Assembly (NCBI RefSeq): GCF_024502345.1 | Contig: NZ_JALDNN010000001.1 | DNA from: Escherichia coli | GTDB taxonomy: Bacteria > Pseudomonadota > Gammaproteobacteria > Enterobacterales > Enterobacteriaceae | Reading direction: 5' to 3' (one strand) | Length of the DNA: 64,000 bases | Part shown: piece by piece, positions 5,394 through 50,675 of the stretch | Position numbering within the stretch: the stretch's first letter is position 1 | How the letters are laid out: each line of letters starts with the position of its first letter | Translations under genes and position numbers: made by a program | Notes under the pieces: model-generated | What the model saw: the letters and a program-made list of their open reading frames with translations, nothing else | Databases searched by the model: none | Told to the model about the DNA's origin: nothing

Positions 5394-7271
5394 ATGAGGT
5401 TTATGATGGCTGGCCAGTATGAAAAAGCAATAACGATAAAACAAGCGATAGATTCAATTAATTTACGCCACTATCTTCTGCCTGCAATTCAGAGGAAGTT
5501 CGTCTGGAGCAGCAGTCAAATATGTTTGCTGTTTGATTCCATCATGCGAGACTACCCGATAAACTCTTTCATGATGTGGGATATCCGTAGTGCCAGTATT
5601 AAAAATGATTACAAATTCTATGAATTCCTGAAAGAATACTGTCAGCGATTTAATGAAGAAAACCCCTGCGTAGCAACAAATGCTGGATTTCATGATTTCA
5701 AGGCGGTGATTGATGGTCAGCAGCGTCTCACATCATTATATATTGGATTGTGTGGAACGTATGCGTATAAACAGCCCCGGGTGTGGTGGCCTTCGGCACA
5801 GGATGATCGCATCCTGCCGCCCAGAAAGCTTTACGTCGATTTAACAGCGCCACTTAATTCAGACGATGAGCTCATGATGAAGTATAACTTCAGGTTCCTG
5901 ACCGACAAGCAATACGCTGATTCACTTACAGACAACAAGCATCACTGGTTCTGCCTGCACGAAATATTCAAATACGAGCAACATGATTCGCCTGATGATA
6001 TTTTATTTAACGTTGTCGTACCAGAACTCGAAAAAAGAGGACTCATTTCCAGTGAATTTTCCAGAAAAACATTACTGAGACTTTATACAAAAATAAGAAC
6101 TGAGAACATCATCCACTACTTCAATGAGAGTAGTCAGGATATTGACCATGTGCTGGATGTTTTCATACGCACGAACAGCGGGGGGACAAAACTTGAGTTC
6201 TCCGACTTACTGATGTCAATAGCGGTAGCGCACTGGCAGGGTGATTTCAGAAGAGAACTGGATGAACTGACAAAAAACATTTATCAGAATAATGAAATGG
6301 GGTTTTATATTGAAAGAGACTGGTTCTTAAAAACCAGCCTGATGCTTATTGACTCTGACGTCCGGTTCAAAGTAAAAAACTTCACTTCAGAGGAGGTCGG
6401 TAAGATACAACAACAATGGTCTGAAATAAAATCCTGCATCAAGGAGACTTTTATTCTTATCAGGCGATTCGGCATCAATCCACAGTCTTTGATATCTAAA
6501 AATGCAGTCATTCCTGTGGTCTACTGGCTTTACAAAAAGCAAACCAGTGGACATCCATTATATACAACGATTAACCTCCTGAATAAAAACCACAATGAAC
6601 GCTCAGTAATTAGCCAGTGGTTTTACATGGTACTTCTGAAAGGGATCTTTGGAAGCCAGGCAGATGCGCTACTCACGAGTATCAGAGATGTAATGAAAAA
6701 TAGTCTTTCAGATATTCACTTTCCTCTTGAAAAGATTATTGACAGATATAAAGGCTCGAATAAAGACCTCAGATTTGACGACGAATACATCGAAAGCCTT
6801 CTCAATATCAGATATGGCGAAGGTCGTTGCCGCGCACTATTGCATCTTCTGTTCCCTGAAATGAATCCGACCGAGGTGTTTCATATTGATCACCTTCACC
6901 CAAGAAATCACTTCTCAAAGAAATATCTTGAAAAATTAGATTATGTTGCGAACTCACCAGAGAACCTCAGCTTTTATGAAAACCCGGAACACTGGGACAC
7001 CATACCTAATCTTCATTTACTGAATCATTCTCAGAATATAAGTAAACAGGATACTTCCCTGAAACAATGGCTATCTCAGCCATCAAACAACTATTCGCCA
7101 TCAATGCTGTTAGTTTCAGATGAAAATATTGAGTTCAGTCGCTTCCCGGAATTCTACAATGAACGAAGAAACGCCCTGAAGCAAAGACTACTGAATCGGG
7201 TATTTCTTACAACAAAAATAGATTCATCACCATCCACAATCGATACGGATGAAGAAATTCTCACCGACTGA
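5394..7271 (+). CDS. DUF262/DUF1524 protein, GmrSD-like putative type IV (modification-dependent) restriction endonuclease
   Basis: N-terminal DUF262 hallmark ...AVIDGQQRLTSL... (DGQQR motif); C-terminal His-rich HNH-like region ...FHIDHLHPRNHF...; sits directly upstream of hsdM. Confidence 0.75.
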   Translation: MRFMMAGQYEKAITIKQAIDSINLRHYLLPAIQRKFVWSSSQICLLFDSIMRDYPINSFMMWDIRSASIKNDYKFYEFLKEYCQRFNEENPCVATNAGFHDFKAVIDGQQRLTSLYIGLCGTYAYKQPRVWWPSAQDDRILPPRKLYVDLTAPLNSDDELMMKYNFRFLTDKQYADSLTDNKHHWFCLHEIFKYEQHDSPDDILFNVVVPELEKRGLISSEFSRKTLLRLYTKIRTENIIHYFNESSQDIDHVLDVFIRTNSGGTKLEFSDLLMSIAVAHWQGDFRRELDELTKNIYQNNEMGFYIERDWFLKTSLMLIDSDVRFKVKNFTSEEVGKIQQQWSEIKSCIKETFILIRRFGINPQSLISKNAVIPVVYWLYKKQTSGHPLYTTINLLNKNHNERSVISQWFYMVLLKGIFGSQADALLTSIRDVMKNSLSDIHFPLEKIIDRYKGSNKDLRFDDEYIESLLNIRYGEGRCRALLHLLFPEMNPTEVFHIDHLHPRNHFSKKYLEKLDYVANSPENLSFYENPEHWDTIPNLHLLNHSQNISKQDTSLKQWLSQPSNNYSPSMLLVSDENIEFSRFPEFYNERRNALKQRLLNRVFLTTKIDSSPSTIDTDEEILTD

Positions 7272-7474
7272 ACGTTCAGCCCCGATAGTATTGGGGCTTC
7301 AGTATTTATCATCAGCGCAACGTTTCTACTGGCCTGGCTGAAAGAGCATTGGCTACACAACCGGGCAAACGAACTCTCAGTGCAACGTATGACATACAAA
7401 GCCTGTCATCAATATGAAATTGCGATAAAATCGGGCCAATAACAGTACTTAAGAATCATACAACAGGATACAAA

Positions 7475-9031
7475 ATGACAAGCCTTCAGCAGCGTGCAGA
7501 GCTACACCGTCAAATCTGGGCCATTGCCAATGATGTCAGAGGCTCCGTAGATGGGTGGGATTTTAAACAGTATGTACTCGGTGCACTTTTCTACCGCTTC
7601 ATCAGTGAGAATTTTTCCAGCTACATGGAAGCAGGGGATGAGAGCATACATTATGCAGCACTTGATGACAGCATCATTACCGATGACATCAAAGACGATG
7701 CCATCAGGACTAAAGGCTATTTCATCTACCCGAGCCAGCTGTTCTGCAACGTTGCCGCTAAAGCGAACACCAACGACAGGCTGAATGCTGATTTAAACAG
7801 TATCTTCGTCGCTATAGAAAGCTCTGCCTACGGCTACCCGTCAGAGGCCGACATCAAAGGCCTGTTCGCCGATTTCGATACGACCAGCAATCGACTGGGG
7901 AACACAGTTAAAGACAAAAACAGCCGTCTTGCCGCGGTTCTGAAAGGGGTTGAAGGGTTAAAACTTGGTGACTTCAACGAACATCAGATTGACCTGTTCG
8001 GTGATGCCTATGAGTTCCTGATTTCTAACTATGCCGCAAATGCCGGTAAGTCAGGCGGTGAGTTCTTTACACCGCAGCACGTCTCCAAGCTGATTGCACA
8101 ACTGGCTATGCACGGGCAGACCAGCGTTAACAAAATCTACGACCCGGCAGCGGGTTCCGGCTCACTGTTGTTGCAGGCGAAAAAACAGTTTGATAACCAC
8201 ATCATCGAAGAAGGCTTTTTCGGTCAGGAAATCAACCATACGACCTATAACCTGGCGCGTATGAACATGTTTTTGCACAATATCAACTACGACAAGTTTG
8301 ATATCAAGCTGGGTAATACACTGACTGAGCCGCACTTCAGAGATGAAAAACCGTTTGACGCCATCGTATCTAATCCACCGTATTCGGTGAAATGGATTGG
8401 CAGCGATGACCCGACGCTGATTAACGATGAACGTTTTGCCCCGGCTGGCGTTCTGGCCCCCAAATCCAAAGCTGACTTTGCGTTTGTATTACATGCACTG
8501 AACTATCTTTCTGCCAAAGGTCGTGCTGCGATTGTCTGCTTCCCGGGTATTTTTTACCGTGGCGGCGCAGAGCAGAAAATCCGTCAATATCTGGTCGACA
8601 ATAACTATGTCGAAACCGTGATTTCACTGGCACCGAACCTGTTCTTTGGCACCACCATTGCCGTCAATATTCTGGTGCTGTCTAAACATAAAACGGATAC
8701 CAAAGTTCAGTTTATTGATGCCAGCGAATTATTCAAAAAAGAGACTAACAACAATATCCTGACCGATGCCCATATCGAACAGATTATGCAGGTATTTGCC
8801 AGCAAGGAAGATGTTGCTCATCTGGCGAAATCTGTCGCGTTTGAGACCGTTGTCGCTAATGACTATAACCTGTCGGTGAGCTGCTATGTAGAAGCGAAAG
8901 ATAACCGCGAAATTATCAATATTGCTGAGCTAAATGCAGAGCTTAAAACTACGGTTAGCAAAATCGACCAGTTGCGTAAAGATATTGATGCGATTGTGGC
9001 TGAAATTGAAGGCTGCGAGGTGCAGAAATGA
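7475..9031 (+). CDS. hsdM: type I restriction-modification system, N6-adenine DNA methyltransferase subunit HsdM
   Basis: 518 aa; NPPY motif ([10 protein letters not shown]); AdoMet-binding region [10 protein letters not shown]; stop overlaps the hsdS start (ATGA). Confidence 0.95.
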
Positions 9032-10200
9032 GCGAGTTGAGTTATCTGGAAAAATTGCTGGATGGGGTTGAGGTTGAGTGGAAATCATTGGGAGATGTTG
9101 TAAATTTTCAGCGCGGAAGGCGGCTCGTAAAATCTCAGTTAGAAACCAGAGGTAAATATGCGGTTTACCAAAACAGCATGACACCACTCGGTTACTATCA
9201 TGAGTATAATGTCGCAGCTCAATCTTCGTTCATTATCTGTGCGGGTGCAGCCGGTGAAATTGGTTATAGCGAAAATGAATTTTGGGCTGCCGACGATGTT
9301 CATTTCGCAATCACACCAGAATATATAAATGACAGGTTTTTGTTTCATTTTTTGTTGACGCAAAAGAATAAAATTTCAGGACAAGTACGCCGTGCCAGTA
9401 TTCCGCGTCTCTCAAAGTCAGTAATTGAAAAACTTGAATTCCCCATCCCCTGCCCGGATAATCCGGAAAAGTCCCTTGCCATCCAGTCTGAAATCGTTCG
9501 GATTCTGGATAAATTTACTGCACTTACCGCTGAGCTTACCGCTGAGCTTAACATGCGTAAAAAACAGTACAACTACTATCGCGACCAGTTGCTGAGTTTT
9601 GATGAGGGTGAGGTTGAGTGGAAGGCTTTGGAGGAAGTCTCAACTTTTGCTAATGGAAAGGGGCATGAAAAAGACATATCAGAAGACGGTAAATATATTG
9701 TTGTAAACTCTAAGTTTATATCTACCAATGGCGAAGTCGCCAAGTTATCAAACAAACAGCTATGCCCTCTTTTTAAAGACGATATTCTTTTGGTTATGAG
9801 TGACCTGCCCAATGGCAAAGCACTTTCAAAAACATTTATTGTTGATGAAGATCATAAATACACTTTAAACCAACGTATTGGTGGAATTACAGTAAAAAAC
9901 AGTAATGAATTACTCCCTAAGTTTTTGCACTATTTTTTAAATAGAACCCCGCAATTGCTGAAACATGACAATGGTGTTGATCAAACAAATTTGCGTAAAG
10001 GTCAAATACTTGAAGTAAAAATACCAATAATTTCACTCATCAAACAAGTTCAGATCGTTGAAACTCTTGATAAATTCGATACTTACACTAAGTCGATTTC
10101 AGAAGGCCTCCCGCGCGAAATCGAGCTGCGCCATAAACAGTACGAGTACTATCGTGATTTATTGTTCAGCTTCCCGAGACCAGAAACCGCCAGCAACTGA
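9028..10200 (+). CDS. hsdS: type I R-M specificity subunit HsdS (type IC-like)
   Basis: Two target-recognition domains separated by a conserved central region with the TAEL repeats (LTAELTAEL) and a related C-terminal repeat (...[14 protein letters not shown]). Confidence 0.9.
9523..9550 (+). repeat. 12-bp direct repeat CTTACCGCTGAG x2 (plus partial CTTA) in the hsdS central spacer region
   Basis: Read directly: cttaccgctgag cttaccgctgag ctta, encoding LTAE-LTAE-L. Confidence 0.9.
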
Positions 10201-10316
10201 CGGACCATTGATACCGGCAGGGTTTGTTCTCACCCGCCCGGTATCAGGCTTTAAGAATGCCGGAAGATGCTTCTGATACCCTTCCGGAATTTGCCAGATG
10301 ACGCACAGGATGCACC

Positions 10317-13300
10317 ATGACACAACAGATACACACCATTGCTGAATCCAATAACTTTATCGTCCTTGATAAATACACCAAAGTTCTGGAGAACGGCGAC
10401 AGCTACCAGAGCGAATCGGATCTTGAGCGGGAACTGATTCAGGACCTTCTGAATCAGGGCTATGAATTTATATCCGTTAAGTCACCGACAGCGATGCTGG
10501 CGAATGCACGGGACCAGCTTCAGCATCTTAATGGTGTGGTGTTTAACGAAAGTGAATGGCGGCGCTTCGCAGAGCAGTATCTGGACAGCCCCAGTGACAG
10601 CAGCCTGGACAAAACTCGTAAAATCCATATCGACTATATCTGTGATTTCACGTTTGATGACGGTCGTCTGGAAAACATCTATCTGATAGATAAAAAGAAC
10701 CTGCTGCGCAATAAGGTGCAGGTCATTCAGCAGTTTGAACAGACCGGCTCACACGCTAACCGTTATGACGTCACCATTCTGGTTAACGGCCTGCCACTGG
10801 TGCAAATCGAACTCAAAAAGCGCGGCGTGGCTATTCGTGAAGCCTTTAACCAGATACACCGTTACAGCAAGGAAAGCTTTAACAGCGACAACTCCCTGTT
10901 TAAATACCTGCAACTGTTTGTGATATCTAACGGAACCGATACCCGGTACTTTGCCAGTACCACTAAGCGGGATAAAAACAGCTTTGATTTCACCATGAAC
11001 TGGGCGAAGTCGGATAACACTCTGATTAAGGACCTGAAGGACTTTACCGCCACCTTCTTCCAGAAACATACCCTGCTGAATGTTCTGTTTAATTACAGCG
11101 TGTTTGACAGCAGCCAGACTCTGCTCGTCATGCGCCCCTATCAGATTGCCGCCACTGAGCGAATCCTCTGGAAAATTAACAGCTCATTTAAAGCGAAGAA
11201 TTGGTCAAAACCCGAAAGCGGCGGGTTTATCTGGCATACCACCGGGTCAGGCAAAACCCTGACCAGTTTTAAGGCTGCACGACTGGCAACCGAACTGGAC
11301 TTTATAGACAAAGTCTTCTTCGTGGTCGACAGAAAAGACCTTGATTACCAGACAATGAAGGAGTATCAGCGCTTTTCTCCGGACAGCGTCAACGGTTCGG
11401 ATAATACAGCAGGCCTCAGAAGAAACCTGGATAAGGACGATAACAAAATCATCGTCACAACCATTCAGAAACTCAATAACCTGATGAAAGCCGAAGCTGA
11501 CCTGCCCGTCTATCAGCAGCAGGTAGTGTTTATCTTTGATGAGTGTCACCGCAGCCAGTTTGGTGAGGCCCAGAAAAACCTCAAAAAGAAATTCAGACGC
11601 TTTTATCAGTTTGGTTTTACCGGTACGCCTATTTTCCCGGAAAATGCACTGGGGGCAGAAACCACAACCAGCGTGTTCGGGCGTGAGTTACATTCTTACG
11701 TCATTACTGATGCGATTCGTGATGAAAAAGTACTGAAGTTTAAGGTGGACTATAACGATGTCCGCCCACAGTTTAAGTCTCTTGAAACGGAAACAGACGA
11801 GAAAAAACTCAGCGCGGCTGAAAACCAACAGGCATTTTTGCACCCCCTGCGTATCCAGGAAATAACGCAATACATTCTCAATAACTTCCGGCAGAAAACA
11901 CACCGAACCTTCCCGGGAGCTAAGGGCTTTAACGCCATGTTAGCAGTTAGCAGCGTGGACGCGGCGAAAGCTTATTACACGACGTTTAAAATGCTACAGG
12001 AAGAAGCAGAGAAGAAATCTGGCAGCTATAAATGCCTTCGGGTGGCAACCATCTTCTCCTTTGCTGCAAATGAAGAGCAAAGCGCCATTGGTGATATTAC
12101 TGACGAAAGCTTTGATACCAGTGCAATGAACAGCAGCGCGAAGGAATTCCTGGATTCAGCCATTGATGACTATAACAATCACTTTAAAACCAATTTCAGC
12201 ACCGACAGTAACGGTTTCCAGAACTACTACCGCAATTTAGCTCAACGAGTGAAAAATCAGGATATTGACCTTCTCATCGTGGTGGGAATGTTCTTGACTG
12301 GCTTTGATGCCCCGACGCTTAACACTCTTTTCGTTGACAAAAACCTCCGTTATCACGGCCTGATGCAGGCATTTTCCCGCACAAACCGTATCTATGATGC
12401 CACCAAAACCTTCGGCAATATCGTGACTTTCAGGGATCTGGAGCGTCCGACCATTGATGCCATCACACTATTTGGCGACAAAAACACCAAGAATGTGGTG
12501 CTGGAAAAAAGCTACGAAGAGTACATGCAGGGCTTTACCGATGCGGCAACCGGTGAGGCTAAACGAGGTTTTATGGCTGTTGTTTCGGAGCTGGAGCAGC
12601 GCTTCCCTGACCCTGCCAGTATCGACAGTGAAAAAGAGAAAAAAGCCTTCGTCAAACTGTTTGGTGAATATCTGCGGGCAGAAAACATCCTGCAAAACTA
12701 TGATGAATTTGCCACGCTGAAAGCCCTGCAGAAGGTTGATATTAGTGACCCGGAAGCGGTAGAAACCTTTAAAGCAGAGCACTATGTGGATGATGAAAAA
12801 TTTGCTGAATTACAAACCATTCGTCTCCCGGCAGAACGTAAAGTTCAGGACTATCGCTCAGCATACAATGATATCCGGGACTGGCAGCGACGCGAAAAAG
12901 CATCAAACGACAGGGATAAATCAACCACAGACTGGGATGACGTGGTGTTTGAAATTGACCTGCTGAAGTCGCAGGAAATTAACCTGGATTACATCCTTGG
13001 TCTGATTTTCGACCACAATCGTCAGAAAAAAGGTAAAGAAGCCCTGACTGAAGAGGTCAGACGCTTAATCCGCTCAAGTCTGGGCAACCGTGCCAAAGAA
13101 GGTCTGATTGTTGACTTTATTCAGCAAACTAACCTTGATGACATGCCGGACAAGGCCAGTATCATTGATGCATTCTTTACCTATGCTCAGCGTGAACAGC
13201 AACGGGAAGCAGAGGCGTTGATTAAGGAAGAAAACCTCAATGAAGAGGCTGCAAGGCGCTATATCCGCACATCACTAAAACGGGAGTATGCCACCGAAAA

Positions 13301-13433
13301 TGGGACGGAGCTAAATGAGACGCTACCAAAGCTCAGTCCGCTGAATCCTCAGTACAAAACGAAAAAGCAGACTGTATTCCAGAAAATTGGGGCATTTATC
13401 GAAAAATTTAAAGGGGTTGGAGGACACCTCTAG
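10317..13433 (+). CDS. hsdR: type I R-M restriction subunit HsdR (SF2 helicase/translocase plus nuclease)
   Basis: 1038 aa; Walker A ([10 protein letters not shown]) and DEAD-box motif II ([10 protein letters not shown]). Confidence 0.95.
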
Positions 13434-13654
13434 ATGTCAGATAAAAGAACAATGCGCTACCGCAATTTATGGGTAAGATTGTATCTTTTAACCTGCATCA
13501 GACCTGTTATGATCGATGAGGCGCTGGTTAATGTTAATGCTAACTGGATGAGTTTTAATCGCTGATTCAGACAATTAGCGTCCAGAACTCACAGAAACCA
13601 GTGCTTGATTTTGGATGGTAAAGTGCTGAACGGACGTATCACAGGAGAATGCTT

Positions 13655-13993
13655 ATGAGCGTAACTATAAAAGACGATCGACTCCGTACCATCGCTACCT
13701 TTGACGGTAAAACCCTGAAAGACGACCGGCTCAGGACCATCGCAACGTTTGACGGTAAAACCCTGAAAGACGACCGGCTCAGAACCATCTCAACTTTTGA
13801 CGGTAAAACCCTGAAAGACGACCGACTCCGCACCATCGCTACCTTTGATGGCAAGACCCTGAAAGACGATCGACTCCGCACCATCGCAACATTTGATGGT
13901 AAAACACTTAAAGACGATCGACTCAGAACCATCGCGACAGTTAATGGTAATGTTAGTATTGTTGTTTTGGCGTTTGCTGCTCGGCTATTTTAG
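13655..13993 (+). CDS. small repeat protein: five 16-aa tandem repeats (KDDRLRTIATFDGKTL) and a hydrophobic C-terminal tail
   Basis: Copies differ almost only at synonymous codon positions in this frame (for example Arg as cgt, agg, aga, cgc), which argues for real coding sequence; AGGAGA 7 nt upstream of the ATG at 13655. Confidence 0.5.
   Translation: MSVTIKDDRLRTIATFDGKTLKDDRLRTIATFDGKTLKDDRLRTISTFDGKTLKDDRLRTIATFDGKTLKDDRLRTIATFDGKTLKDDRLRTIATVNGNVSIVVLAFAARLF
13670..13939 (+). repeat. 48-bp tandem repeat, about 5.6 copies
   Basis: Direct inspection; units begin AAAGACGA(C/T)CG(A/G)CTC... Confidence 0.9.
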
Positions 13994-14516: not shown

Positions 14517-15782
14517 ATGGCACTGACTGACGCAAAAATCCGGGCTGCAAAGCCCACTGACAAGGCTTATAAACTCACTGACGGGGCCGGCATGTTCCTG
14601 CTGGTTCATCCTAATGGTTCCCGTTACTGGCGTCTCCGTTATCGTATTCTGGGTAAGGAGAAAACCCTGGCACTTGGTGTGTATCCGGAAGTTTCTCTCT
14701 CCGAAGCTCGTACAAAACGGGATGAGGCCCGAAAACTGATTTCGGAGGGGGTTGACCCTTGCGAACAGAAAAGAGCTAAAAAAGTAGTCCCTGATTTACA
14801 ACTCTCTTTTGAACATATTGCACGACGCTGGCATGCCAGTAATAAACAATGGGCACAATCACACAGCGATAAAGTACTCAAAAGCCTCGAGACACACGTT
14901 TTCCCCTTTATCGGCAACCGGGATATCACAACACTCAGTACCCCGGACCTGCTTATCCCTGTTCGTGCTGCAGAAGCTAAACAAATTTATGAAATCGCCA
15001 GTCGTCTGCAGCAAAGAATATCTGCTGTAATGCGTTATGCCGTACAGTCTGGCATCATCAGATATAACCCGGCTCTGGATATGGCTGGTGCATTGACCAC
15101 GGTAAAACGCCAGCATCGCCCTGCTCTGGATCTTTCACGCCTGCCTGAACTTCTGTCGCGTATTGACGGTTATAAAGGCCAGCCTGTCACCCGACTGGCA
15201 GTTATGCTGAATTTACTGGTTTTTATTCGTTCCAGTGAACTCAGATATGCCCGCTGGTCTGAAATTGATATTGACAATGCCATGTGGACTATTCCAGCCG
15301 AACGCGAACCTCTGCCAGGCGTAAAATTTTCATACCGGGGCTCCAAGATGCGAACACCACATCTTGTGCCACTCAGCCAACAGGCTGTAGCCATACTGGC
15401 AGAACTTCAGACATGGGCAGGTGAAAATGGTCTGATCTTTACGGGAGCACATGACCCACGTAAACCAATCAGTGAAAACACCGTAAATAAAGCCCTGAGG
15501 GTTATGGGGTATGACACAACCCAGGATGTCTGTGGTCATGGATTCCGGGCGATGGCATGTAGTGCATTAATAGAATCAGGTTTGTGGTCCCGCGATGCTG
15601 TGGAACGCCAGATGAGCCATCAGGAGCGTAATGGTGTACGTGCTGCGTATATCCATAAAGCCGAACATCTGGAAGAACGTCGACTTATGCTACAGTGGTG
15701 GGCCGATTTTCTGGATGCAAACAGAGAAAGATTTATCAGTCCATTTGAATATGCAAAGATTAATAATCCATTAAAACAATAA
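14517..15782 (+). CDS. int: P4-type tyrosine integrase
   Basis: 421 aa; N-terminus MALTDAKIRAAKPTDKAYKLTDGAGMFLLVHPNGSRYWRLRYR is characteristic of P4-like integrases; lies about 200 bp downstream of the tRNA-Phe fragment. Confidence 0.9.
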   Translation: MALTDAKIRAAKPTDKAYKLTDGAGMFLLVHPNGSRYWRLRYRILGKEKTLALGVYPEVSLSEARTKRDEARKLISEGVDPCEQKRAKKVVPDLQLSFEHIARRWHASNKQWAQSHSDKVLKSLETHVFPFIGNRDITTLSTPDLLIPVRAAEAKQIYEIASRLQQRISAVMRYAVQSGIIRYNPALDMAGALTTVKRQHRPALDLSRLPELLSRIDGYKGQPVTRLAVMLNLLVFIRSSELRYARWSEIDIDNAMWTIPAEREPLPGVKFSYRGSKMRTPHLVPLSQQAVAILAELQTWAGENGLIFTGAHDPRKPISENTVNKALRVMGYDTTQDVCGHGFRAMACSALIESGLWSRDAVERQMSHQERNGVRAAYIHKAEHLEERRLMLQWWADFLDANRERFISPFEYAKINNPLKQ

Positions 15783-21562: not shown

Positions 21563-24064
21563 TTATTTTCGTAATAACCTCAGGCCATTTGCCACAACCA
21601 GAAGACTGGCACCAACATCAGCAAATACAGCCATCCACATAGTTCCCATTCCCATGAGCGTGAGTACAAGGAATACGGCTTTAATACCTAGAGCGAGGCT
21701 GATATTTTGCACGAGTAAGCTGTACGTTTGTCGGGATAATTTTACAAAGGCTGGGATTTTACGCAGGTCATCATCCATTAAGGCTACATCTGCAGTTTCA
21801 ATCGCCGTATCAGTACCCATTGCGCCCATAGCAAAACCGATATCAGCTGCAGCCAGAGCCGGTGCATCATTGATACCATCACCAACCATCCCAGTGATTC
21901 CAATCCGTGAATGCTCTTCAACTGCACGATGTTTATCTTCTGGCAATTGATTCCCTCGAGCCTCATCGATTCCAACCTGAGATGCGATTGCTTTAGCTGT
22001 ATGTGGGTTATCACCAGTCAGCATAATAGTTTTAACGCCAAGTTCATGAAGTTGTTCAATCGCTTCACGGCTGCTGTTTTTAACAGTATCAGCAACAGCG
22101 AACAACCCAAGCACTTGCTTACCATCATTGAGTAAAATAACTGTTTTACCCTGGCTTTCCAGCCTTTGTACTGTTGCTTTAATCTCTGATGGACAATTAA
22201 AGTGTTCTTCAGTCAAACGCAGGTTACCAAGGTAAAAATCCTTACCTGTAATCGCGCCATGCACACCTCGCCCAACAATCGCTTCAAAGCTGTCAACATC
22301 CTGCTTTTTCAAATCAGCAGAAGCATTCACAATTGCCAGTGAAACAGGGTGATCAGAGTAACTAGCGAGACTAGCTGCAGTAGTACGAACTTCACGCTCG
22401 CTCCACCCATTGAATACCATTACGTCGGTTTGTACTGGTTTCCCATAGGTAATAGTTCCTGTTTTATCCAGCGCAAGGGCTTTTAGCTTACGTCCCTGCT
22501 CAAGATAAACACCGCCTTTAATGAGAATCCCTTTGCGAGCAGCTGCAGTAAGTCCACTAACAATCGTTACTGGCGTAGAAATAACCAGGGCACATGGACA
22601 CGCAATGACAAGCATAACTAAAGCTTTATAGATCCACTCCTGCCATGTTCCTGCCCCAAACAATGGTGGCAATACAGCAACCGCAACAGCAATACCCATA
22701 ACGACGGGGGTATAAATCTGGGAAAAGCGGTCAACAAAACGTTGTGTAGCTGCTTTGGCGCCTTGCGCCTGCTCAACGGCATGAATGATGCGAGCAAGGG
22801 TTGTATTATTTGCAGCTGCAGTGACTTTATATTCAAAAGAGCCTGACTGATTTATTGTTCCAGCAAATACAGCATCGCCCGCAATTTTATCGACAGGCAT
22901 ACTTTCACCTGTAATTGGAGCTTGGTTAATGGTGGTTTGGCCTTTGACGATTTCTCCGTCGAGACCAATTCGTTCACCTGGTTTTACCCTGACAATACTG
23001 CCCGGTTGTACGCTACTGGCGTCAACTTCCTGCCATGTTCCATCAGCTTGTTGGACCATTGCAGTTTCAGGAGTCAGGTTCATCAGGGAACCTATTGCAT
23101 TTCTGGCTCTATCAAGTGATTTGGCTTCTATCAGCTCGGCAATGGTGAATAACACCATAACCATCGCCGCTTCTGGCCACTGCCCAAGGACCAAAGCCCC
23201 AGTAACGGCAATACTCATTAGTGCATTGATATTCAAGTTGCCATTGCGAATCGAAATCCAACCTTTTTTGTAGGTTGTCAGACCACAAGAAAGCACTGCT
23301 ATCAAAGCCAACCCAGCTTCTAGCCAGTCAGGCATATCAGCCCAGTGCATCACTTCGGCTGCAAGAGCAGCTACGCCAGCAAGAGCTAATGGCCACCAGG
23401 GCTTTTTTTTCTCCTGGGTATTTTTCTTGCCGCTAGTATTATCAGAGACTTCTGGCGCGAATCCCAACGAGCGAATTGCAGCCATGATAGCTTCAAGCGA
23501 ATCCGGTGTATGGGTTACAGTCAAAACACGCTGCATCAGGTTGAAATCAAGCTCTTTAACAGCGCTCATTCCACCCAGTTTCTTTTTGATAAGATTTTCT
23601 TCAACAGGACAATCCATCTGCATAATGCGAATTTCTGTCCGTAATCCACCAGCCACAACCTGCGAGCCCCCTAGGCTACTCAATTGTTCTGGAGCAGCGG
23701 AGCAACAATCCCCCTCATGGCCGTGATCGTGGCCTTCATGAGAATGCTCTTGCGCGGCATGAGCATGGTTACATCCCTTATGATTATGCTCATCATGCGA
23801 ATGCCCTTCGCCGCCATGGCTATGGGCATCATGATTATGGCCTTCATGGTTATGGCCTTCATGGTTATGACCTTCATGGGAATGATCATCACTGCATTTC
23901 TTGTGATTATGAGCCTGCTGATCATGTGCATGATCATTTGCTTTATGTGATTCACCAGTATTCTTAACCCGGAGTCCTGTCCCTAAATTGAACGTTTCAC
24001 AGCAACTAGCCGCTTCGTCTCCTGCAGGGTTTTTGCTATTTTTTACACCACCACTCATTTTCAT
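21563..24064 (-). CDS. cadA: heavy-metal translocating P1B-type ATPase (Zn/Cd/Pb-type, CadA/ZntA-like) with His-rich N-terminus
   Basis: 833 aa; N-terminal HEGHNHEGHNHEGHNH repeats; CPC membrane motif (IACPCALVIS); phosphorylation motif DKTGT; [10 protein letters not shown] hinge. Confidence 0.9.
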   Translation of the reverse strand: MKMSGGVKNSKNPAGDEAASCCETFNLGTGLRVKNTGESHKANDHAHDQQAHNHKKCSDDHSHEGHNHEGHNHEGHNHDAHSHGGEGHSHDEHNHKGCNHAHAAQEHSHEGHDHGHEGDCCSAAPEQLSSLGGSQVVAGGLRTEIRIMQMDCPVEENLIKKKLGGMSAVKELDFNLMQRVLTVTHTPDSLEAIMAAIRSLGFAPEVSDNTSGKKNTQEKKKPWWPLALAGVAALAAEVMHWADMPDWLEAGLALIAVLSCGLTTYKKGWISIRNGNLNINALMSIAVTGALVLGQWPEAAMVMVLFTIAELIEAKSLDRARNAIGSLMNLTPETAMVQQADGTWQEVDASSVQPGSIVRVKPGERIGLDGEIVKGQTTINQAPITGESMPVDKIAGDAVFAGTINQSGSFEYKVTAAANNTTLARIIHAVEQAQGAKAATQRFVDRFSQIYTPVVMGIAVAVAVLPPLFGAGTWQEWIYKALVMLVIACPCALVISTPVTIVSGLTAAARKGILIKGGVYLEQGRKLKALALDKTGTITYGKPVQTDVMVFNGWSEREVRTTAASLASYSDHPVSLAIVNASADLKKQDVDSFEAIVGRGVHGAITGKDFYLGNLRLTEEHFNCPSEIKATVQRLESQGKTVILLNDGKQVLGLFAVADTVKNSSREAIEQLHELGVKTIMLTGDNPHTAKAIASQVGIDEARGNQLPEDKHRAVEEHSRIGITGMVGDGINDAPALAAADIGFAMGAMGTDTAIETADVALMDDDLRKIPAFVKLSRQTYSLLVQNISLALGIKAVFLVLTLMGMGTMWMAVFADVGASLLVVANGLRLLRK

Positions 24065-27840: not shown

Positions 27841-28845
<1,005 letters not shown>

Positions 28846-39766: not shown

Positions 39767-40372
39767 TCAAGGTTGTAACACGATCCGATTCGACTCCAGC
39801 ATGACAGCCGACAGTGTATGAGCCGCAAAAACAGCCATACAGGCTGACAAGTCGCCATTCACAAGAAACTCAACCGGCGCAACGAGTTTCCCTCCATCCG
39901 AAAATCCGCAGGTCAGTGCCGACTTCCTTACCAGCAGTGCATTCGCATCGCTGTATTCCAGGGCCAGAAGCGTTTCATTGTCCCAGTCCCTGTCACTCAC
40001 CGCTGCATTGACCCAGCCCCGCGATTTAAGCTGTTCAATTGCGTACGTCAGCCGATACAAATCCGACTGCGCTGACACCGGTCCGGTGCACGAAGACCAC
40101 AGATATTCCAGACGACTGAATAAGCTGGCGGCAAGGCCTTTGTTACGCCCCAGCGTCAGCAATCCCTCAATATCAGATGCGATTGCACGTGGAAACCGTT
40201 TTTGCTTATACGCCACCGTTAACCAGCGCAGTATAAATGCATGCGTGCTGAGTGGCGACAATGCCTGACCATCCTGCTGAGCGGTACGTAAGGCGACAAG
40301 GGCGCACCAGGCGAAATGCGCAAGTGCTGTGACGGTTTGTTCCGGGGGTAAGGTATCGTGAGCTTTTTTCAT
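39767..40372 (-). CDS. hypothetical protein (201 aa), first gene of a CP4-like module
   Basis: ORF; same strand and tight spacing with neighbours. Confidence 0.45.
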   Translation of the reverse strand: MKKAHDTLPPEQTVTALAHFAWCALVALRTAQQDGQALSPLSTHAFILRWLTVAYKQKRFPRAIASDIEGLLTLGRNKGLAASLFSRLEYLWSSCTGPVSAQSDLYRLTYAIEQLKSRGWVNAAVSDRDWDNETLLALEYSDANALLVRKSALTCGFSDGGKLVAPVEFLVNGDLSACMAVFAAHTLSAVMLESNRIVLQP

Positions 40373-40448
40373 TCAGGGATTATATCGGCGCTGCAGACAC
40401 CGGGGAAGACCTGGATAACTCCCCCATTAATTAGAGAAGCTATTACTT

Positions 40449-41015
40449 TCACGGACAAATCATCCCCGTTCTGGCCGTTGCTATTGGCTCTGACATGGCC
40501 TTAACATGCACGGTAAGCTGGTTAAAGGGTGTTGCGAAGACTCCCTGAGCGACGCGGTTAATAATGATCTGCGTCATACTCGTTACACCGTCAGTGCAGG
40601 CGGTACCGGTCACCTTTTGCCATGCGTCGGCGATGATGGCGTTAAGCCCCGGAGGCGCACTGTCGGTCAGTTGCAGGTTTCGCCCTGTACCCAGCGTATC
40701 GAGATTGAGCAGCAGCACCATTTTGCACTCCGGTGCGCTGGCCGTCTCCCATATCCAGCGTAACAGCGTCGGGAGTGAACGATGTCGTGCCTGCTGACGC
40801 TGGCGCGAATATTCGCCGGTGCGCTGCCAGACTTCAGAGTGAAAACGCAGAATCAATGACCGGTATTCGCTCATGGCTTCACGATACGGTAGCGCCAGCG
40901 TAAAGCTGAATGCCGCCAGTCGCGGGTAATGGTCAACGGCCTGTTGCAGAAATGCACGCGTGCTGACGGCATCCGCGCTGACAGCATCAGACGCCCGTAT
41001 GTAAGAATGATTCAT
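40449..41015 (-). CDS. YagK/YfjJ-like hypothetical protein (recurring paralog family, type A)
   Basis: Clear similarity to ORF 62146..62688 (AFLQQAVDHYPRLAAFSFTL vs RFVQQGVDHWPHLLAFHFTL; LRWIWE...KMVLLLNLD vs LRWLRE...RCLLLLSQT); family name from memory of CP4 prophage proteins. Confidence 0.45.
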   Translation of the reverse strand: MNHSYIRASDAVSADAVSTRAFLQQAVDHYPRLAAFSFTLALPYREAMSEYRSLILRFHSEVWQRTGEYSRQRQQARHRSLPTLLRWIWETASAPECKMVLLLNLDTLGTGRNLQLTDSAPPGLNAIIADAWQKVTGTACTDGVTSMTQIIINRVAQGVFATPFNQLTVHVKAMSEPIATARTGMICP

Positions 41016-41090
41016 AATGCAGACTCTCTTTAGGTTAAATCAGGGAGGACACCGCCTCTACGGCGGTATCTGGTTCATAAAGACGGGGAA

Positions 41091-41507
41091 CTATCTGGTA
41101 CTGCAGCAGTAGTTTCTCTGCCAGTGCGCTTCTTCGATGCTGTAGATACCAGTCAGACACCGGGGACAGTGCTTCACGCCCTGGTAATGGTCGCCGCACC
41201 ACACGCAGTACCAGGAGAGCACCATTACCGTCGCTTCCAGCCCGTTGATGAGACTGCGCAGCTTTCGGTGCCGGGCTTCGGTTTTCACTTCCGGGTCAAG
41301 GTGGGCGCAGGCCATCAGCACATGCCGGGCCACGCTCTGCTGGTCATGTTCAAACCACGGCGGCTCCCCGTATGTCCCCGCATGGAGCACCAGTCGACAG
41401 CCGCAGGACGCGCAGCTCCATATCTGCCCCGGCGCACTCACGGCCTCCCCGGCTGTCGCGAAGTGGCCTTCGCGGTCATTGGCCAGATAACATTTCAGCA
41501 TGCGCAT
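41091..41507 (-). CDS. Cys/His-rich putative zinc-binding protein (paralog 1)
   Basis: Shares the pattern SC..C.......PWFEH....C.....W.C..CG..Y.G...C..C.TG with ORF 41495..41944. Confidence 0.45.
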   Translation of the reverse strand: MRMLKCYLANDREGHFATAGEAVSAPGQIWSCASCGCRLVLHAGTYGEPPWFEHDQQSVARHVLMACAHLDPEVKTEARHRKLRSLINGLEATVMVLSWYCVWCGDHYQGVKHCPRCLTGIYSIEEAHWQRNYCCSTR

Positions 41508-41944
41508 GCCGTCACTTCCTCTATCCGGTTGGTATCAGCACGCACATCACTGTGCTCGCCCGTCCGGCAGGTGAGGCAGTAGCGCTCACCGTGGTAATCA
41601 CTGCCGCAGCCGTGACAGTGCCAGTCTGCGTAGAAAACCAGGGGACGGGCTTCCGGTACATAAGACTGCAGTTGCCGGATATGGCGGGTCTCCCTCACCC
41701 CGGGCTTTACATACGGGCAGTGCTGTCGACCGTTCTCCGAAAGCTTTGCTGCATGATGTTCAAACCACGGACGTTCGGTGTCGTATTCAGGATGGTACTG
41801 CAGGGCACTGGCACACAGATGGCAGCTGTAGCGGTCATACGGCGCGGTCTGCGCGGTTATGGCTCCCGTGAGACGGCCGTTGCCGTCCAGAGCCATAAAC
41901 GATTTTGCATACATAGTGGTACTCTCCTTACCGCCAGACGACAC
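41495..41944 (-). CDS. Cys/His-rich putative zinc-binding protein (paralog 2)
   Basis: As above; overlaps the downstream gene by about 13 nt. Confidence 0.45.
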   Translation of the reverse strand: MSSGGKESTTMYAKSFMALDGNGRLTGAITAQTAPYDRYSCHLCASALQYHPEYDTERPWFEHHAAKLSENGRQHCPYVKPGVRETRHIRQLQSYVPEARPLVFYADWHCHGCGSDYHGERYCLTCRTGEHSDVRADTNRIEEVTACAC

Positions 41945-42203
41945 GCAGGCGTCAGCCGTCCCGGTACGGGCAGCGTGGCAGGGTGAATGGCGGTTCAGTT
42001 ATGCGTTAGCGGGTCGGTACGGTTGGTGGTCGGCACCGGAATACAGAAAGGTTACGGTTGTGCAGGTGCGTCGGTGGGTCTGAAACAAACGGGACAGGGT
42101 CTGGCGCCACAGTACTGTCGCCGGCAACGGGGACACGTCCAGCGAACCGGGATGGCCTGTGGCTGAGTGCGGCGTCGTTTTTCCATTCAGATATCCTCCC
42201 TGC

Positions 42204-42443
42204 TCAGACGCCACGGGAATCAGCAATACGCTGCTGCATCCAGGCTTCCACCTCGCTTCTGCGCCAGCGGGAGCTGCGCCCCAGCTTGATGGGTTTCGGA
42301 AACAACCCGTCGCCAATCAGTTTGTAAAACCATTTGTCGGTCATCCCGGTAAACGTGGTGATAAAGGTCATGTCGATAAGCGGGTCCTGAGCTGAAAGCA
42401 GTGTGTCAGGGCTGGCATTAATATTCGTATTCAACGTGGTCAT
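42204..42443 (-). CDS. AlpA-like phage regulatory protein / excisionase-family HTH
   Basis: ...LIDMTFITTFTGMTDKWFYKLIGDGLFPKPIKLGRSSRWRRSEVEAWMQQR...; highly similar to ORF 62914..63144. Confidence 0.65.
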   Translation of the reverse strand: MTTLNTNINASPDTLLSAQDPLIDMTFITTFTGMTDKWFYKLIGDGLFPKPIKLGRSSRWRRSEVEAWMQQRIADSRGV

Positions 42444-42595
42444 GGTATTTTTCTCCCTCTGAGGATATGGCTATCGGGAGACGTCCGGTGGTGGTTGAAT
42501 CATGGGGTTACCGGTTCTCCTCAGAGGATAGGGGAACGTTGTAAAAAATTACCCGGCCCGCACAATCAGGCCTGATGAATCGAGATATGTCTGGC

Positions 42596-43201
42596 TCAGC
42601 CACGGCTGCAACCGAAGTTACGCTCACCGTCACCGGTGATTTTGGTCTCCAGCTTGGCTAAATAGGCCGCCTGCGACAGGGCCTGTTGCAGTTGAGCACC
42701 ATCGCCACGTGTCAACCATGAGACTGGACTCGCCGGGAAACGAGCCAGAACGGCATGCGCCTGTGCATCCACCTTCAGGGCGCTGCACCACGCTTGTTTA
42801 ATCATACCTGCAAGCGAATCCGGGTCTTTGTAATCTCCCGGTCCGCACCACGTATCGCGGTTCAGCAACAGCACCGCGTGGTAATGCTTCTTCCCTTTGA
42901 TTTCACCAAACTCCCGCGCCCAGATAAAACGCAGCGTGGTCGGCCAGACGCGTTTGCCCTCGCGACGTTGACGCGTCTGAAGGGCATCAATCCGGGCTTT
43001 CAGGGAATCGGTGAAGCGGGAGATAACAGCAGCATCGGTGGCCGCTGGCGTATCCGGCAGACGGAGGTCAACACGCAGGGCCAGTAAGCGGGTGTAAGCG
43101 TTAAGAGCGCAACTGAAGGTATCAGCGATGCGTTGCTGCCAGTAAGGGTCGTATGTGTAACTCATTAAAATGGACTCCGGTGGGTTATCGTTCATAACCA
43201 T
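42596..43201 (-). CDS. YagK/YfjJ-like hypothetical protein (type B)
   Basis: ...KHYHAVLLLNRDTW...; related to ORF 63213..63803. Confidence 0.45.
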   Translation of the reverse strand: MVMNDNPPESILMSYTYDPYWQQRIADTFSCALNAYTRLLALRVDLRLPDTPAATDAAVISRFTDSLKARIDALQTRQRREGKRVWPTTLRFIWAREFGEIKGKKHYHAVLLLNRDTWCGPGDYKDPDSLAGMIKQAWCSALKVDAQAHAVLARFPASPVSWLTRGDGAQLQQALSQAAYLAKLETKITGDGERNFGCSRG

Positions 43202-43336
43202 TACCGGTGCTGTTAAAAAAAACTTATTGCCTTCAGCGAGTCCGCCAGTCGATCCCTCAGAGACGGCTGGCTTCAGTAAAATATCGTGGCTGGCAGAATG
43301 ATTGCGTAAAGGGTAATCGCCTCTCAGAAATCGGTT

Positions 43337-43762
43337 CTAATGCCGGGTGACCCGAAGGCTGCGAAAAAACAGTCTTCCCGTTAGACGATGGCGGGTACGC
43401 TTGACATAAGCGGCGTCAACGAGTTCATCGGGTGGCAAATCACGGGTGATATTACAAATCGTCGCCAGTGCTGTATCGGAGAGTTTAAAACTCCGTGACA
43501 AGGCGTAGTAATCCCCGGTTTTTTGGTTACTGATGTTATCGAATAACGCTCTGAAGAAATCCGTCTGTGAAGGTCTGCGGGCGTTGATAATTGCCTCTGT
43601 CGCTTCATCCCTGAATGTTACCTCCACCTCTTCCATCCCCAGTGAGCGAATGATCCCGGCAATGTCAGGCCAGTAGCGAAGATCGAAACTGTTAAGTCGC
43701 TGCAATTCTGGCTTACAGAAGCAGCTGAAGATTGCGATGCCCTTGTATTGACCTGGACCCAA
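43337..43762 (-). CDS. hypothetical protein (141 aa)
   Basis: ORF only. Confidence 0.3.
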   Translation of the reverse strand: MGPGQYKGIAIFSCFCKPELQRLNSFDLRYWPDIAGIIRSLGMEEVEVTFRDEATEAIINARRPSQTDFFRALFDNISNQKTGDYYALSRSFKLSDTALATICNITRDLPPDELVDAAYVKRTRHRLTGRLFFRSLRVTRH

Positions 43763-45311
43763 AATAGGTTGTGGTTACCCTGAAAAGCAAATATTACCCC
43801 AGAGGGATGTATATACCCGGGGCAAGAGCCCCTGTACCAGTCCCTCATTGCTGTCATGATATTATTACCCCGTTCAATAAGCCCGATAAATAATCGTTAT
43901 CGGGACTACTGCTAAAACGCCCTGTAACGCATCAGGAGCGCCATATTCATACTAACCACAGATTTCCACTATCGTGTTATTCAATGCGCTTATGCAGGCT
44001 CACAGGAAGCTATGGCGGTATAAGACACTACAGCGCTCAATTACTTATTAAATAGCTTGCGGTGATTACCAGGATAATCACCCTATTCCACGTCACCTCA
44101 ATCGGGTTATTCTGTTTACGATACAATCATGACTATTATCACCAACACGGATAATGCCCCGTTTACAGTCGTTACCAATGGCCTTGTTTACACATATCAA
44201 AAAACTTTCAGGGATAACGGGTCACCGTAGTATCTGTAACTGACAGGTATTGTAAGCGTCAATATCAGGCAGACAGAGCAATACCGACAGGCTTACTACA
44301 GGTTAGTTCACTGACTGAGCATTTAACGCTCATCACTAATACGCAGACCAGTAATAAACCATTGATACTCACCTGCTGATTTTCAGGCATGACCATTCAC
44401 CCAAAACGTTACTGTTAACCAGTAACCACCCTGTCGTTATGATTATTAGATTACTGATGTTAATCATCTTCACTTTTATCCTGACGAGGACTAGTCAATG
44501 GTAATATCGACTCAATTCAATTCTGTTTTCTTAATGATAGATTTTTAATGAGTGCTAAACATTCAGGTTGTGACTACATTGAATGGTGTATTTCTTACCT
44601 GATGGCAATGATTGCTCAATGGATACCATCCAATAGTACTATCCCCTTAGTGAATACCTTCAGATAATAATACCTCCCAGGCATAACCCACTTACTGATA
44701 ACACATCATCGATTACTGTTACAAATGATAAGACCCCTTCTTTAATATATTAATACCAATCCAACACGCCAGGCATAACAATAGCTATGAAGATAACCAC
44801 GCCAGACAGCACTTACCTACAACAAACGCCTGCATCAGTTACTCTGGAATTATCTTTTTTCAATAACATGAAAATAGACACCACGTCATATCAAATAACC
44901 TCAATCAAATTAACCCCGTATCATCACTGCCCGCAGAAGCCCTCAATCCTGATTATGAGCAACAAAATGGAAATACCTCATGGCAGCCCGACCTGATACC
45001 AGAAATGCCCCCTGAAGCGAACCAGGCACCATGATGGGGATGAAAACGAAAGCATGCAGGAGAACAAGATAACCTATTGAGACGATACTCATCCAGTAAA
45101 CAGAGAAGCATCTGAGAGATAAACAAAGAAAATGACAACTTTAAAACCATGGTAAAACCTTGTCAAAACCAGTATAAATCAACAATAAAACCTCACGATG
45201 ACTACCAGATGTGTTTTTAAGTGACGATAAAACCATCATCGTGATACTGTGTAGCTACAACAATCACCACCATAACCACTACTATGTAGTTTACGATTAC
45301 AGGTATCCACA

Positions 45312-46280
45312 ATGGTTGTACATTACGACAATGGCAGACAACATCTTATAAAAACCCGTGACCTGAGAGTCTGTGCTTTTTATGCCGGGTGGCTGGGTGT
45401 TAATAAAATAATTAACACCCGTGACATTCCTCACCAGGATGCAGAAAGTTGTCGACAGGCACTCAACAAACTGATTAATCAGTTCATACCGAATGCAGAA
45501 CAGCGGGCAAGACTTTTTTCTGATATGGAAACAGCCCGTGATGAAAACATCCTTCCGCTGGAAAGTTTTGACTGGCTAGAACAGGATGAACGGGCAACAT
45601 TCTGGTTATGGGCGTATATTTGCAAGGCCGGAGACTACGAACTTGGTATTGACAAACCAGCAAATGCAGAGTTCGGAAAGAACTGGTATCAGCGAATGAA
45701 TCTGAGTGTATCTCCGACAAGCCACCAGGAAAGAATTAATATTATCATCTCTTTTTTCGACAACATTATTATTCCGACCCCACCGGTAAATCATCTCAAG
45801 CGCCAGGTCATGGACAGGCTGAAAGACCAGTGGAAAAATATTTACAGCAAACCAGCTCCGCTGAAATGGTTACCTAATGAAGAAGACGCGGTACTGTGGG
45901 CATGGAACAGCCTCAAATCGCTTCAGGAAGAAAGAAATGCGCCCACTATCGGGCTCTCATTAAATATTTCAACGCCAGGAATGAGTACCTGGTTTACCCC
46001 CCTGAGTCATTCTGAACGCAATTTAGCCCTGCGCACGGCGATCGACTTATGGGACGATGCACCGGATACAAAGCGTTTATTCCTTCTGAACCTGAATAAA
46101 GCCTGGAACCAGCAAAAATTACGTCAGTCCCGTACCGATAAAAAAGCACTCAATACGTACCTGAAGAACGAAACAAAAACTCGACTGGACTTTATGGCAG
46201 AACGTAGCGGAGTTCGCATCAGTGATATGCTGGAAATGCTGATTAATGACCATTACCGAAAAACCTGTGGTGGTGAGTGA
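45312..46280 (+). CDS. hypothetical protein (322 aa), orphan gene after a 1.5-kb AT-rich non-coding region
   Basis: Long ORF with normal amino-acid composition; no family recognised. Confidence 0.5.
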   Translation: MVVHYDNGRQHLIKTRDLRVCAFYAGWLGVNKIINTRDIPHQDAESCRQALNKLINQFIPNAEQRARLFSDMETARDENILPLESFDWLEQDERATFWLWAYICKAGDYELGIDKPANAEFGKNWYQRMNLSVSPTSHQERINIIISFFDNIIIPTPPVNHLKRQVMDRLKDQWKNIYSKPAPLKWLPNEEDAVLWAWNSLKSLQEERNAPTIGLSLNISTPGMSTWFTPLSHSERNLALRTAIDLWDDAPDTKRLFLLNLNKAWNQQKLRQSRTDKKALNTYLKNETKTRLDFMAERSGVRISDMLEMLINDHYRKTCGGE

Positions 46281-46629
46281 GGGCTTTGCGCTAAAAACAA
46301 GGTGAGCGGAGGCAGTAATACAGACCAGAAATGACATTCAAAATAATTTCAGACCTATATTACCGGTGTGAGAACGGCAGCAGAAGTGCTGCCGTTTTGT
46401 TATTTCACTCACGGAGGTTAATGTGTCCAGTAAGAACAAACGGGGTCCCGATACCCTGTTACCGTCGTTATTCCTTCTCCCGGGTCAACTGTCCCACAAA
46501 ATACCCGTGCGTATGCTTCTCGCGCTAAGTCACAGCTATGCTTTCTGTTCCGGTACCCAGGTCTCTCTGATACACGGTCCGCCAGCTCATGAAGGCGGCT
46601 ATTTATTGCCAGTAATAAGGGAGAAAGAA

Positions 46630-46926
46630 ATGCATTGTCCGAATTGCGGTTCGCAAAACATACGACTGCGCCATGTGGGTAAAAAGACGGGTGGGGTCAT
46701 TGGCGCAACAGCCGGAGGCATTGCCGGGCTTGAAGGAGCCTCCACCGGTGCGCTGATAGGTTCAGTCATTCCGGTTGTCGGTACGATAGCCGGAGGCCTC
46801 ATTGGTTTTCTGTCCGGCGCCTGTGCTGGTGCGGTGGCAGGCTCTCTGGCCGGAGAACAACTGGACGGTACCGTCTTTGATGAATACGGCTGCACGCAGT
46901 GCGAGCATATCTTCAGTGCACCGTAA
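46630..46926 (+). CDS. small zinc-ribbon / glycine-zipper membrane protein
   Basis: ORF 46423..46926 trimmed to MHCPNCGSQN (GGGAG RBS); CPNC...CTQC Cys pairs flanking a Gly-rich hydrophobic segment. Confidence 0.45.
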   Translation: MHCPNCGSQNIRLRHVGKKTGGVIGATAGGIAGLEGASTGALIGSVIPVVGTIAGGLIGFLSGACAGAVAGSLAGEQLDGTVFDEYGCTQCEHIFSAP

Positions 46927-47112
46927 CGTTAATAAGGGTCAGCCCATCCTGCACAAAGCCTGAGCCGCTGACCGTACTCGCTACGGCACGACTGATGACA
47001 GGGCGTGTCAGCATGCTGTCGTCATTTCAGCTACCTGGCACTAACCCTTTGTTAATTCTCCTGTTTACTGAAAGATGAATTTTACTTTTTCTTTTCCGCC
47101 ATTACGGGGGAT

Positions 47113-47127
47113 GGACATAACGTGTCC
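47113..47127. promoter_or_regulatory. palindrome GGACA-N5-TGTCC (copy 3 of 3), candidate operator
   Basis: GGACAtaacgTGTCC, 60 nt upstream of the ATG at 47188. Confidence 0.45.
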
Positions 47128-47187
47128 CTCCCCGCCCGCATAATAACCGCATGAAATATCAACCTATTTATCGCACACGGAGCGTCC

Positions 47188-47916: not shown

Positions 47917-48179
47917 AACCTGTCGAAGGCCCTCTGCTGCTCTTCACCCTGATGTTGTCTGCCGTAACCCTGAGCGGCTGTGGCGACAAAAATGAACGCG
48001 AGTTTATCCGGGGATGCAAATCAGGCGGCGGTACTACCGCCGTCTGCGGATGTATCCGGGATGACCTCAAAACGAAATATACGCACGGGGAGCTGGAGAA
48101 AATGAACCAGCAATACGGTTATGTCCCCCCGCGCTTCATGGACAACATGCTGAGCGCTGCTCAGCAGTGCAGAAAATAA
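47913..48179 (+). CDS. small lipoprotein
   Basis: Signal peptide with lipobox LSGC (MKPVEGPLLLFTLMLSAVTLSGCGD...). Confidence 0.55.
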   Translation: MKPVEGPLLLFTLMLSAVTLSGCGDKNEREFIRGCKSGGGTTAVCGCIRDDLKTKYTHGELEKMNQQYGYVPPRFMDNMLSAAQQCRK

Positions 48180-48191
48180 GGAAATCTGAAC

Positions 48192-48503: not shown

Positions 48504-48549
48504 CACGGCTGCCCCCCAACAACATTTTTGACTGAGAAGGAAAAATACC

Positions 48550-50673: not shown

Positions 50674-50675
50674 CC

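Follow-up and report, generated by a model that had tools for sequence, protein, structure and literature searches.

A 12-bp tandem repeat in the central region of the specificity gene hsdS raises the question whether an Escherichia coli restriction-modification (R-M) locus carries a working specificity switch, in which the number of repeat units sets the spacer length of the DNA target and changes in natural populations. The TAEL repeat mechanism itself has been known since the late 1980s (1989). In the EcoR124 family, two TAEL units correspond to EcoR124I (GAAN6RTCG) and three to EcoR124II (GAAN7RTCG), the change arising via unequal crossing-over, and EcoDXXI and EcoprrI likewise have three units (PMC3874165). 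Strictly speaking, helix length determines how far apart the two methylated bases lie, and in the EcoR124I state the methylated adenines are 7 nt apart (PMC3874165). EcoR124II has been converted into EcoR124I by engineering one unit out (PMC10644984), and in natural gonococcal NgoAV variants one additional repeat adds one spacer base in the methylomes (PMC6789123). A preliminary description of the locus studied here had invoked the two- versus three-copy spacer account of the EcoR124/EcoR124-3 pair, which agrees with the literature (PMC3874165), and had called the repeat a switching hotspot. We consider it highly probable that the locus is an intact type IC, EcoR124-family hsdM-hsdS-hsdR operon on a mobile island, whose two-unit array sets the spacer and can switch.

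The window, i.e. the whole stretch of 64,000 nucleotides of E. coli DNA that was analyzed (contig NZ_JALDNN010000001.1), contains the three genes listed in Table 1. Type IC systems have the order hsdM-hsdS-hsdR, in which hsdM and hsdS are coupled and hsdR is set apart. This organization is present in the window: the hsdM stop and the hsdS start overlap (ATGA), and 116 bases separate hsdS from hsdR. R-M families are defined via complementation, antibody cross-reaction and sequence (PMC3874165). At the sequence level, HsdR reaches 2121 bits, or 91% of its self-score, against EcoR124 HsdR (2w00 and others, likewise 1038 aa), and HsdM reaches 1133 bits against the M protein of EcoR124 (97% of its self-score). 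The NCBIfam models TIGR00497 (hsdM) and TIGR00348 (hsdR) are matched with scores far above their cut-offs. HsdS aligns from first to last residue with EcoR124 HsdS (7bst_A); the N-terminal 18 residues, the central region (TAELTAEL included) and the C-terminal region are nearly identical to those of 7bst, whereas both recognition domains have diverged. The similarity of HsdM and HsdR, the organization of HsdS and the M-S-R order with its M/S overlap thus all place the operon in type IC, as the preliminary description had proposed from the gene order and the length of HsdR.

Table 1. Features of the type IC operon and its surroundings in the window
Feature	Position	Strand	Details
625-aa ORF directly upstream of hsdM	5394..7271		homologues annotated DUF262 / GmrSD_N (type IV restriction family)
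hsdM, methyltransferase subunit, 518 aa	7475..9031	+	DPAAGSG (223), NPPY (300)
hsdS, specificity subunit, 390 aa, ORF intact	9028..10200	+	
HsdS N-terminal target recognition domain, ~aa 19-136	9082..9435	+	unlike EcoR124I
HsdS central conserved region, ~aa 137-199, first coiled-coil helix with repeat	9436..9624	+	nearly identical to EcoR124I
Tandem 12-bp repeat, CTTACCGCTGAG x2 + CTTA	9523..9550	+	TAEL-TAEL, HsdS residues 167-174
HsdS C-terminal target recognition domain, ~aa 200-342	9625..10053	+	unlike EcoR124I
HsdS C-terminal conserved region, second coiled-coil helix, without repeat	10054..10197	+	
hsdR, restriction/translocase subunit, 1038 aa	10317..13433	+	D151...E165-x-K167, GSGKT (310), DECH (408)
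Tyrosine integrase gene, downstream of operon	14517..15782		

The recognition domains of the window HsdS have no characterized relative in the structure database. As both differ from those of EcoR124I, the target of the window HsdS is predicted to differ in sequence from the EcoR124I target. Of the seven other E. coli hsdS alleles compared, six share the N-terminal recognition domain with 99-100% identity. Among complete E. coli genomes, the pairing of the two recognition domains was found only in strain PKF8. The exact window HsdS protein occurs on 120 public contigs, where it is named restriction endonuclease subunit S of Enterobacteriaceae.

The operon lies inside a mobile chromosomal island, and a like arrangement is present in several E. 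coli chromosomes. Together, the DUF262/GmrSD-type gene and the type IC system form a small defense island. Between hsdR and the integrase gene, an ORF at 13649..13993 (114 aa), whose PKF8 homologue is annotated as '5-fold beta-flower protein', contains a 48-bp tandem repeat (13670-13935; 5.5 copies, 87% matches). Elsewhere in the window, a short tandem repeat with period 15 and 4.3 copies is located at 23815-23879 and a perfect tandem repeat of ACGAAC with 5.5 copies at 28772-28804. The part from 40000 to 60000 is rare accessory DNA, matched in 120/5426 E. coli genomes; within it, ~50.5-60 kb corresponds to a gene cluster with the annotations DEAD/DEAH helicase, SNF2-related protein, AIPR family protein, DNA methyltransferase and Abi family protein, and this region is probably another defense cluster.

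The claimed presence of two perfect 12-bp copies in hsdS could be verified directly from the letters of the window. Positions 9523-9534 and 9535-9546 each read CTTACCGCTGAG and are followed by CTTA (9547-9550), and Tandem Repeats Finder reports 2.3 copies with period 12 and 100% matches over 9523-9550. No second array besides the TAEL repeat was detected by this program between 9000 and 10300. The peptide 'LTAE LTAE L' of the preliminary description is the same TAEL repeat, with the reading begun one codon earlier. The repeat is in frame within the hsdS ORF, so that the locus has perfect tandem 12-bp units in the first HsdS helix, as in the switch of the EcoR124I/II type. Moreover, the published primers for editing the EcoR124 hsdS repeat (PMC10644984) are found verbatim in the window at 9518 and 9538. 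In its repeat unit and the directly adjoining bases, the window hsdS thus has the DNA sequence of EcoR124, an identity at the DNA level that covers the 40 bases spanned by the primers.

Within one allele the units are identical in DNA, whereas between alleles they show synonymous differences (CTTACCGCTGAG, CTTACAGCTGAA, CTTACAGCAGAG and CTTACAGCTGAG). This pattern indicates that units are repeatedly homogenized or regenerated from their neighbor.

HsdS has a coiled coil that keeps its two DNA-recognition domains apart, and the 12-bp repeat encodes two TAEL turns of the first helix. By analogy with EcoR124, the distance and twist between these domains would depend on how many TAEL units are present, and so would the distance between the methylated adenines, which corresponds to the non-specific spacer length of the bipartite target. 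The two-unit array is the EcoR124I state, with an N6 spacer in the case of the EcoR124I half-sites. We infer from this analogy that unit number sets the spacer length in the window allele and that its two units give the EcoR124I geometry. The parallel drawn earlier with the EcoR124 spacer is transferable to the window as far as the distance between methylated adenines is concerned. The half-sites and the literal 'N6' are not transferable, because the recognition domains are not those of EcoR124I and 'N6' depends on the position of the methylated adenine in each half-site. Gain or loss of one unit would shift the specificity of restriction and modification together, by one bp of spacer.

The number of units was compared among isolates, as had been suggested as a check of the hotspot label, and otherwise identical alleles were indeed found to differ. 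Natural alleles differing only in unit number are the window and P0009, L005 and L006, and L016, L034 and L019. P0009, from a public protein collection, is the window HsdS with one TAEL and an otherwise identical protein. It was read on at least 20 contigs, from several samples and assemblers and from human-gut and other metagenomes (including L008-L013). The island context of the operons encoding P0009 is that of the window; hsdM is full-length (518 aa), as is hsdR (1038 aa) on every contig long enough to include its end. At the DNA level, the recognition domains of P0009 and the window show 0 differences, whereas their central regions are set apart by five substitutions besides the 12-base deletion, and hsdM and hsdR differ by 4-5%. 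Identical recognition domains combined with a diverged central region, hsdM and hsdR are a signature of recombination within the conserved regions. Comparison of window positions 9324-9558 with L001 and L008 likewise reveals hsdS as a mosaic, with recognition-domain DNA identical to that of PKF8 and of metagenome contigs.

Alleles L005 (Ec-U18 chromosome, 380 aa, two units) and L006 (AH04 plasmid, 384 aa, three units) have identical recognition domains. They form a natural counterpart of the EcoR124I/II pair. Both carry the window-type N-terminal domain; the C-terminal domains vary among such E. coli alleles. In the hsdS of another strain, E. coli CS5L (L015), the sequence usually found ahead of the TAEL repeat is present ahead of the C-terminal conserved helix as well, apparently through an exchange of sequence between the two helix regions.

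A near-clonal E. coli lineage covers three, four and five units. The operon of strain STIN_95 (L016) is intact and has three units; four units are present in CUVET21-PYO5 and AB_24_S34 (L034, L035), and five in NC101 and FDAARGOS_1251 (L019, L022). These five loci differ by 12-nt steps only, and the 1,465 nt that the others have in common with L016 contain 0 substitutions. Between L019 and L035, a single 12-base step stands against 0 substitutions in 9,052 nt. In this lineage, no other site of the locus changes as fast as the array.

These comparisons bear on the strongest rival reading, in which the coiled coil contains the two TAEL units as an invariable structural element, a stable state of the window allele without any switch. 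Such stability would fit the occurrence of the exact two-copy protein on as many as 120 contigs, while exact three- and four-unit versions of the window HsdS are absent from the collection of 15 billion proteins; two units are also the commonest state in E. coli, and a two-unit tract is a poor substrate for slippage. Nevertheless, a one-copy derivative of the same HsdS exists in intact operons from several samples, alleles with the window N-terminal domain are found with two and with three units, and the array is the only changing site in the near-clonal series. We therefore regard a fixed array as improbable and retain the reading of a two-unit array that sets the spacer and can switch.

Since the units are identical in DNA, misalignment in replication or recombination can add or remove one unit in frame. 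With two units, only 16 bases are common to the offset copies and switching should thus be rare. As the misalignment route, replication slippage at a low rate seems more likely to us than unequal exchange, and the window tract should switch rarely, unlike a classical phase-variable tract with its high rate. The evidence of unit-number change consists of comparisons between isolates; the window tract has two units. Type IC systems show restriction alleviation, and M.EcoR124I is without preference for hemimethylated DNA (PMC12707154). Given both properties, a switch should be survivable for the cell.

An operon that is silent or decaying, with a repeat devoid of present function, is still less probable, indeed very unlikely. 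Type IC loci that have been disrupted by IS elements, frameshifts or stops are numerous in E. coli, and the window operon gave no promoter signal above the shuffled level: in a consensus promoter and terminator scan of positions 7200-13700, sites were no more numerous than in shuffled sequence, which makes the scan uninformative on a separate hsdR promoter. Against decay, the three ORFs are full-length with intact catalytic motifs and the ATGA overlap of hsdM and hsdS has been kept. The array, at two units, is not expanded and falls within the 1-3 range of undamaged operons from E. coli and metagenomes. A chance duplication or an assembly artefact is refuted, with next to no probability left, because perfect tandem arrays of the strength of the TAEL repeat (period 7-30) number three in the window and 0 in 20/20 shuffles, because the TAEL repeat occurs at the equivalent place in thousands of homologous HsdS proteins, and because the array is in frame and matches the EcoR124 primers verbatim.

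The distribution of array length was determined in complete E. coli genomes, where the central conserved region is present in 1254/5426 (chromosomes and plasmids). In an evenly spaced sample of 60 records from the central-region matches, ~33 had two units, ~21 had three (+12 bases) and 0 were 12 bases shorter. Overall, ~60% of the arrays in complete E. coli genomes have two copies and ~40% have three, and the exact one-unit 32-mer occurs in four genomes. A 48-nt one-copy query joins two half-matches, so that it did not isolate one-copy alleles; the span of its matches revealed long arrays. A four-unit query was matched in one piece by at least 35 records.

Thirteen E. coli loci with arrays of 4-8 identical TAEL units were fetched. 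They represent nine lineages, each with its own damage. In three five-unit loci, hsdM is truncated or removed by IS3 (L014, L023, L024), and a six-unit locus also has an hsdM truncated by IS3 (L036). The longest array (eight units, L017) is accompanied by IS1 in hsdS and a truncated hsdM; IS1 also interrupts hsdS in a five-unit locus (L018). The four- and five-unit members of the near-clonal lineage (L019, L022, L034, L035) carry ISEc45 in hsdS. The remaining four-unit loci have an IS3-family element in hsdS (L020), a frameshifted hsdM (L021) or IS5 in place of the hsdM promoter and the first 18 codons (L033). As controls, eight loci with 2-3 units were picked via the array and not via gene integrity; two of them are damaged (L025 is without hsdR and L029 has a stop in hsdS). 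Damaged operons were thus seen in 9/9 lineages with 4-8 units, always with hsdM or hsdS affected, versus 2/8 controls (one-sided Fisher p = 0.0023).

This pattern in E. coli is compatible with relaxed selection after inactivation. The near-clonal series agrees with this: at least one unit step came after the insertion in the ISEc45 lineage, as its four- and five-unit members share one ISEc45 insertion. Equally compatible is the alternative that expansion is harmful and selects for inactivation. We tentatively propose that EcoR124-like arrays in E. coli are under stabilizing selection at 1-3 units and that 4-8 units are reached only after hsdM/hsdS damage, or else are harmful and select for inactivation, a proposal that on balance we find rather doubtful. 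If it is true, the window allele would be at a functional optimum, and array length would be a quick, sequence-only marker of a live type IC system.

In two of the nine lineages, the ISEc45 lineage and L020, both hsdM and hsdR are intact, and the shortened HsdS retains the N-terminal domain and the complete central region, followed by a stub. This is also the architecture of truncated type IC HsdS proteins for which activity as homodimers on palindromic targets has been reported (PMC3874165), and the two lineages may therefore not be dead. By analogy, an IS-truncated hsdS with intact hsdM/hsdR, as in the NC101 lineage and on the P1-like plasmid of ETEC1701, may encode an active half-HsdS with a palindromic target. 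In that case, the expanded arrays may lengthen both helices of the homodimeric coiled coil.

Long arrays were also searched for outside E. coli. A 75-aa central-region query with five TAEL units, used to find long-array HsdS outside E. coli, returned only short fragments. In a scan of one genome per species for at least four degenerate TAEL units, 17 loci (L037-L053) with 4-9 units were identified in many phyla, with hosts including Clostridia, Mucispirillum, Acinetobacter, Thiothrix, Ghiorsea, Suttonella and others. In 14 of these 17 arrays, all units have the same DNA sequence. At least five loci (L037, L039, L046, L047 and L049; 4-7 units) have hsdM in one frame and a full-length hsdS, and in L039 hsdR, too, is full-length and uninterrupted in one frame. 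In two others hsdM is split over frames, one of which is an Ion Torrent assembly and the split may therefore be a sequencing error; in three, hsdS ends soon after the array. A general rule that four or more units occur only in broken systems was rejected, given the 4-7 units in apparently intact operons across phyla, and the association of long arrays with damage is treated here as a clade-limited hypothesis for E. coli.

The repeat is a textbook element of type IC systems and the exact HsdS protein was already catalogued. What the repeat provides is a mark of EcoR124-family membership and a prediction of the distance between methylated adenines, namely that of the EcoR124I state. Isolates that differ by 12 bases at this position may differ in methylome and in their barriers to phages and plasmids, despite identical recognition domains. 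The one-copy derivative, the pairs with identical domains and the substitution-free series together suggest that the laboratory switch of 1989 operates in natural populations too. The comparative data also raise the testable idea of selection on array length; the added value is modest.

Among known systems, EcoR124I of plasmid R124 is closest to the window locus. It shares the hsdM-hsdS-hsdR order, near-identical HsdM and HsdR, the conserved regions of HsdS and the two TAEL units, but its two recognition domains have diverged from those of the window HsdS. EcoR124I is located on an IncF plasmid, whereas the window locus is chromosomal and lies on an integrase-bearing island. Classical phase-variable type I and III systems also change methylation specificity reversibly through repeats. 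They do so with long, high-frequency tracts, mostly in an ON/OFF manner by frameshift, or with recombinases and spare hsdS copies, while the window tract has two in-frame units only and its ORF list contains no second hsdS nearby. NgoAV of Neisseria gonorrhoeae, also type IC, has LEAT/TAEL repeats whose number differs among natural strains, as is the case here. In NgoAV, a poly-G frameshift acts as a further switch and shortens HsdS to a half-subunit whose target is palindromic; a poly-G tract of this kind was not noted at the window locus. In EcoprrI, the anticodon nuclease gene prrC is embedded in the operon (PMC3874165); the 116 bases between hsdS and hsdR in the window leave no room for a prrC-like gene at this junction. 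EcoR124II (= EcoR124/3), EcoDXXI and EcoprrI are type IC systems with the TAEL repeat like the window locus, but they have three units, N7 spacers and recognition domains that differ from those of the window HsdS. They illustrate the effect that would be expected from the gain of one unit at the window locus.
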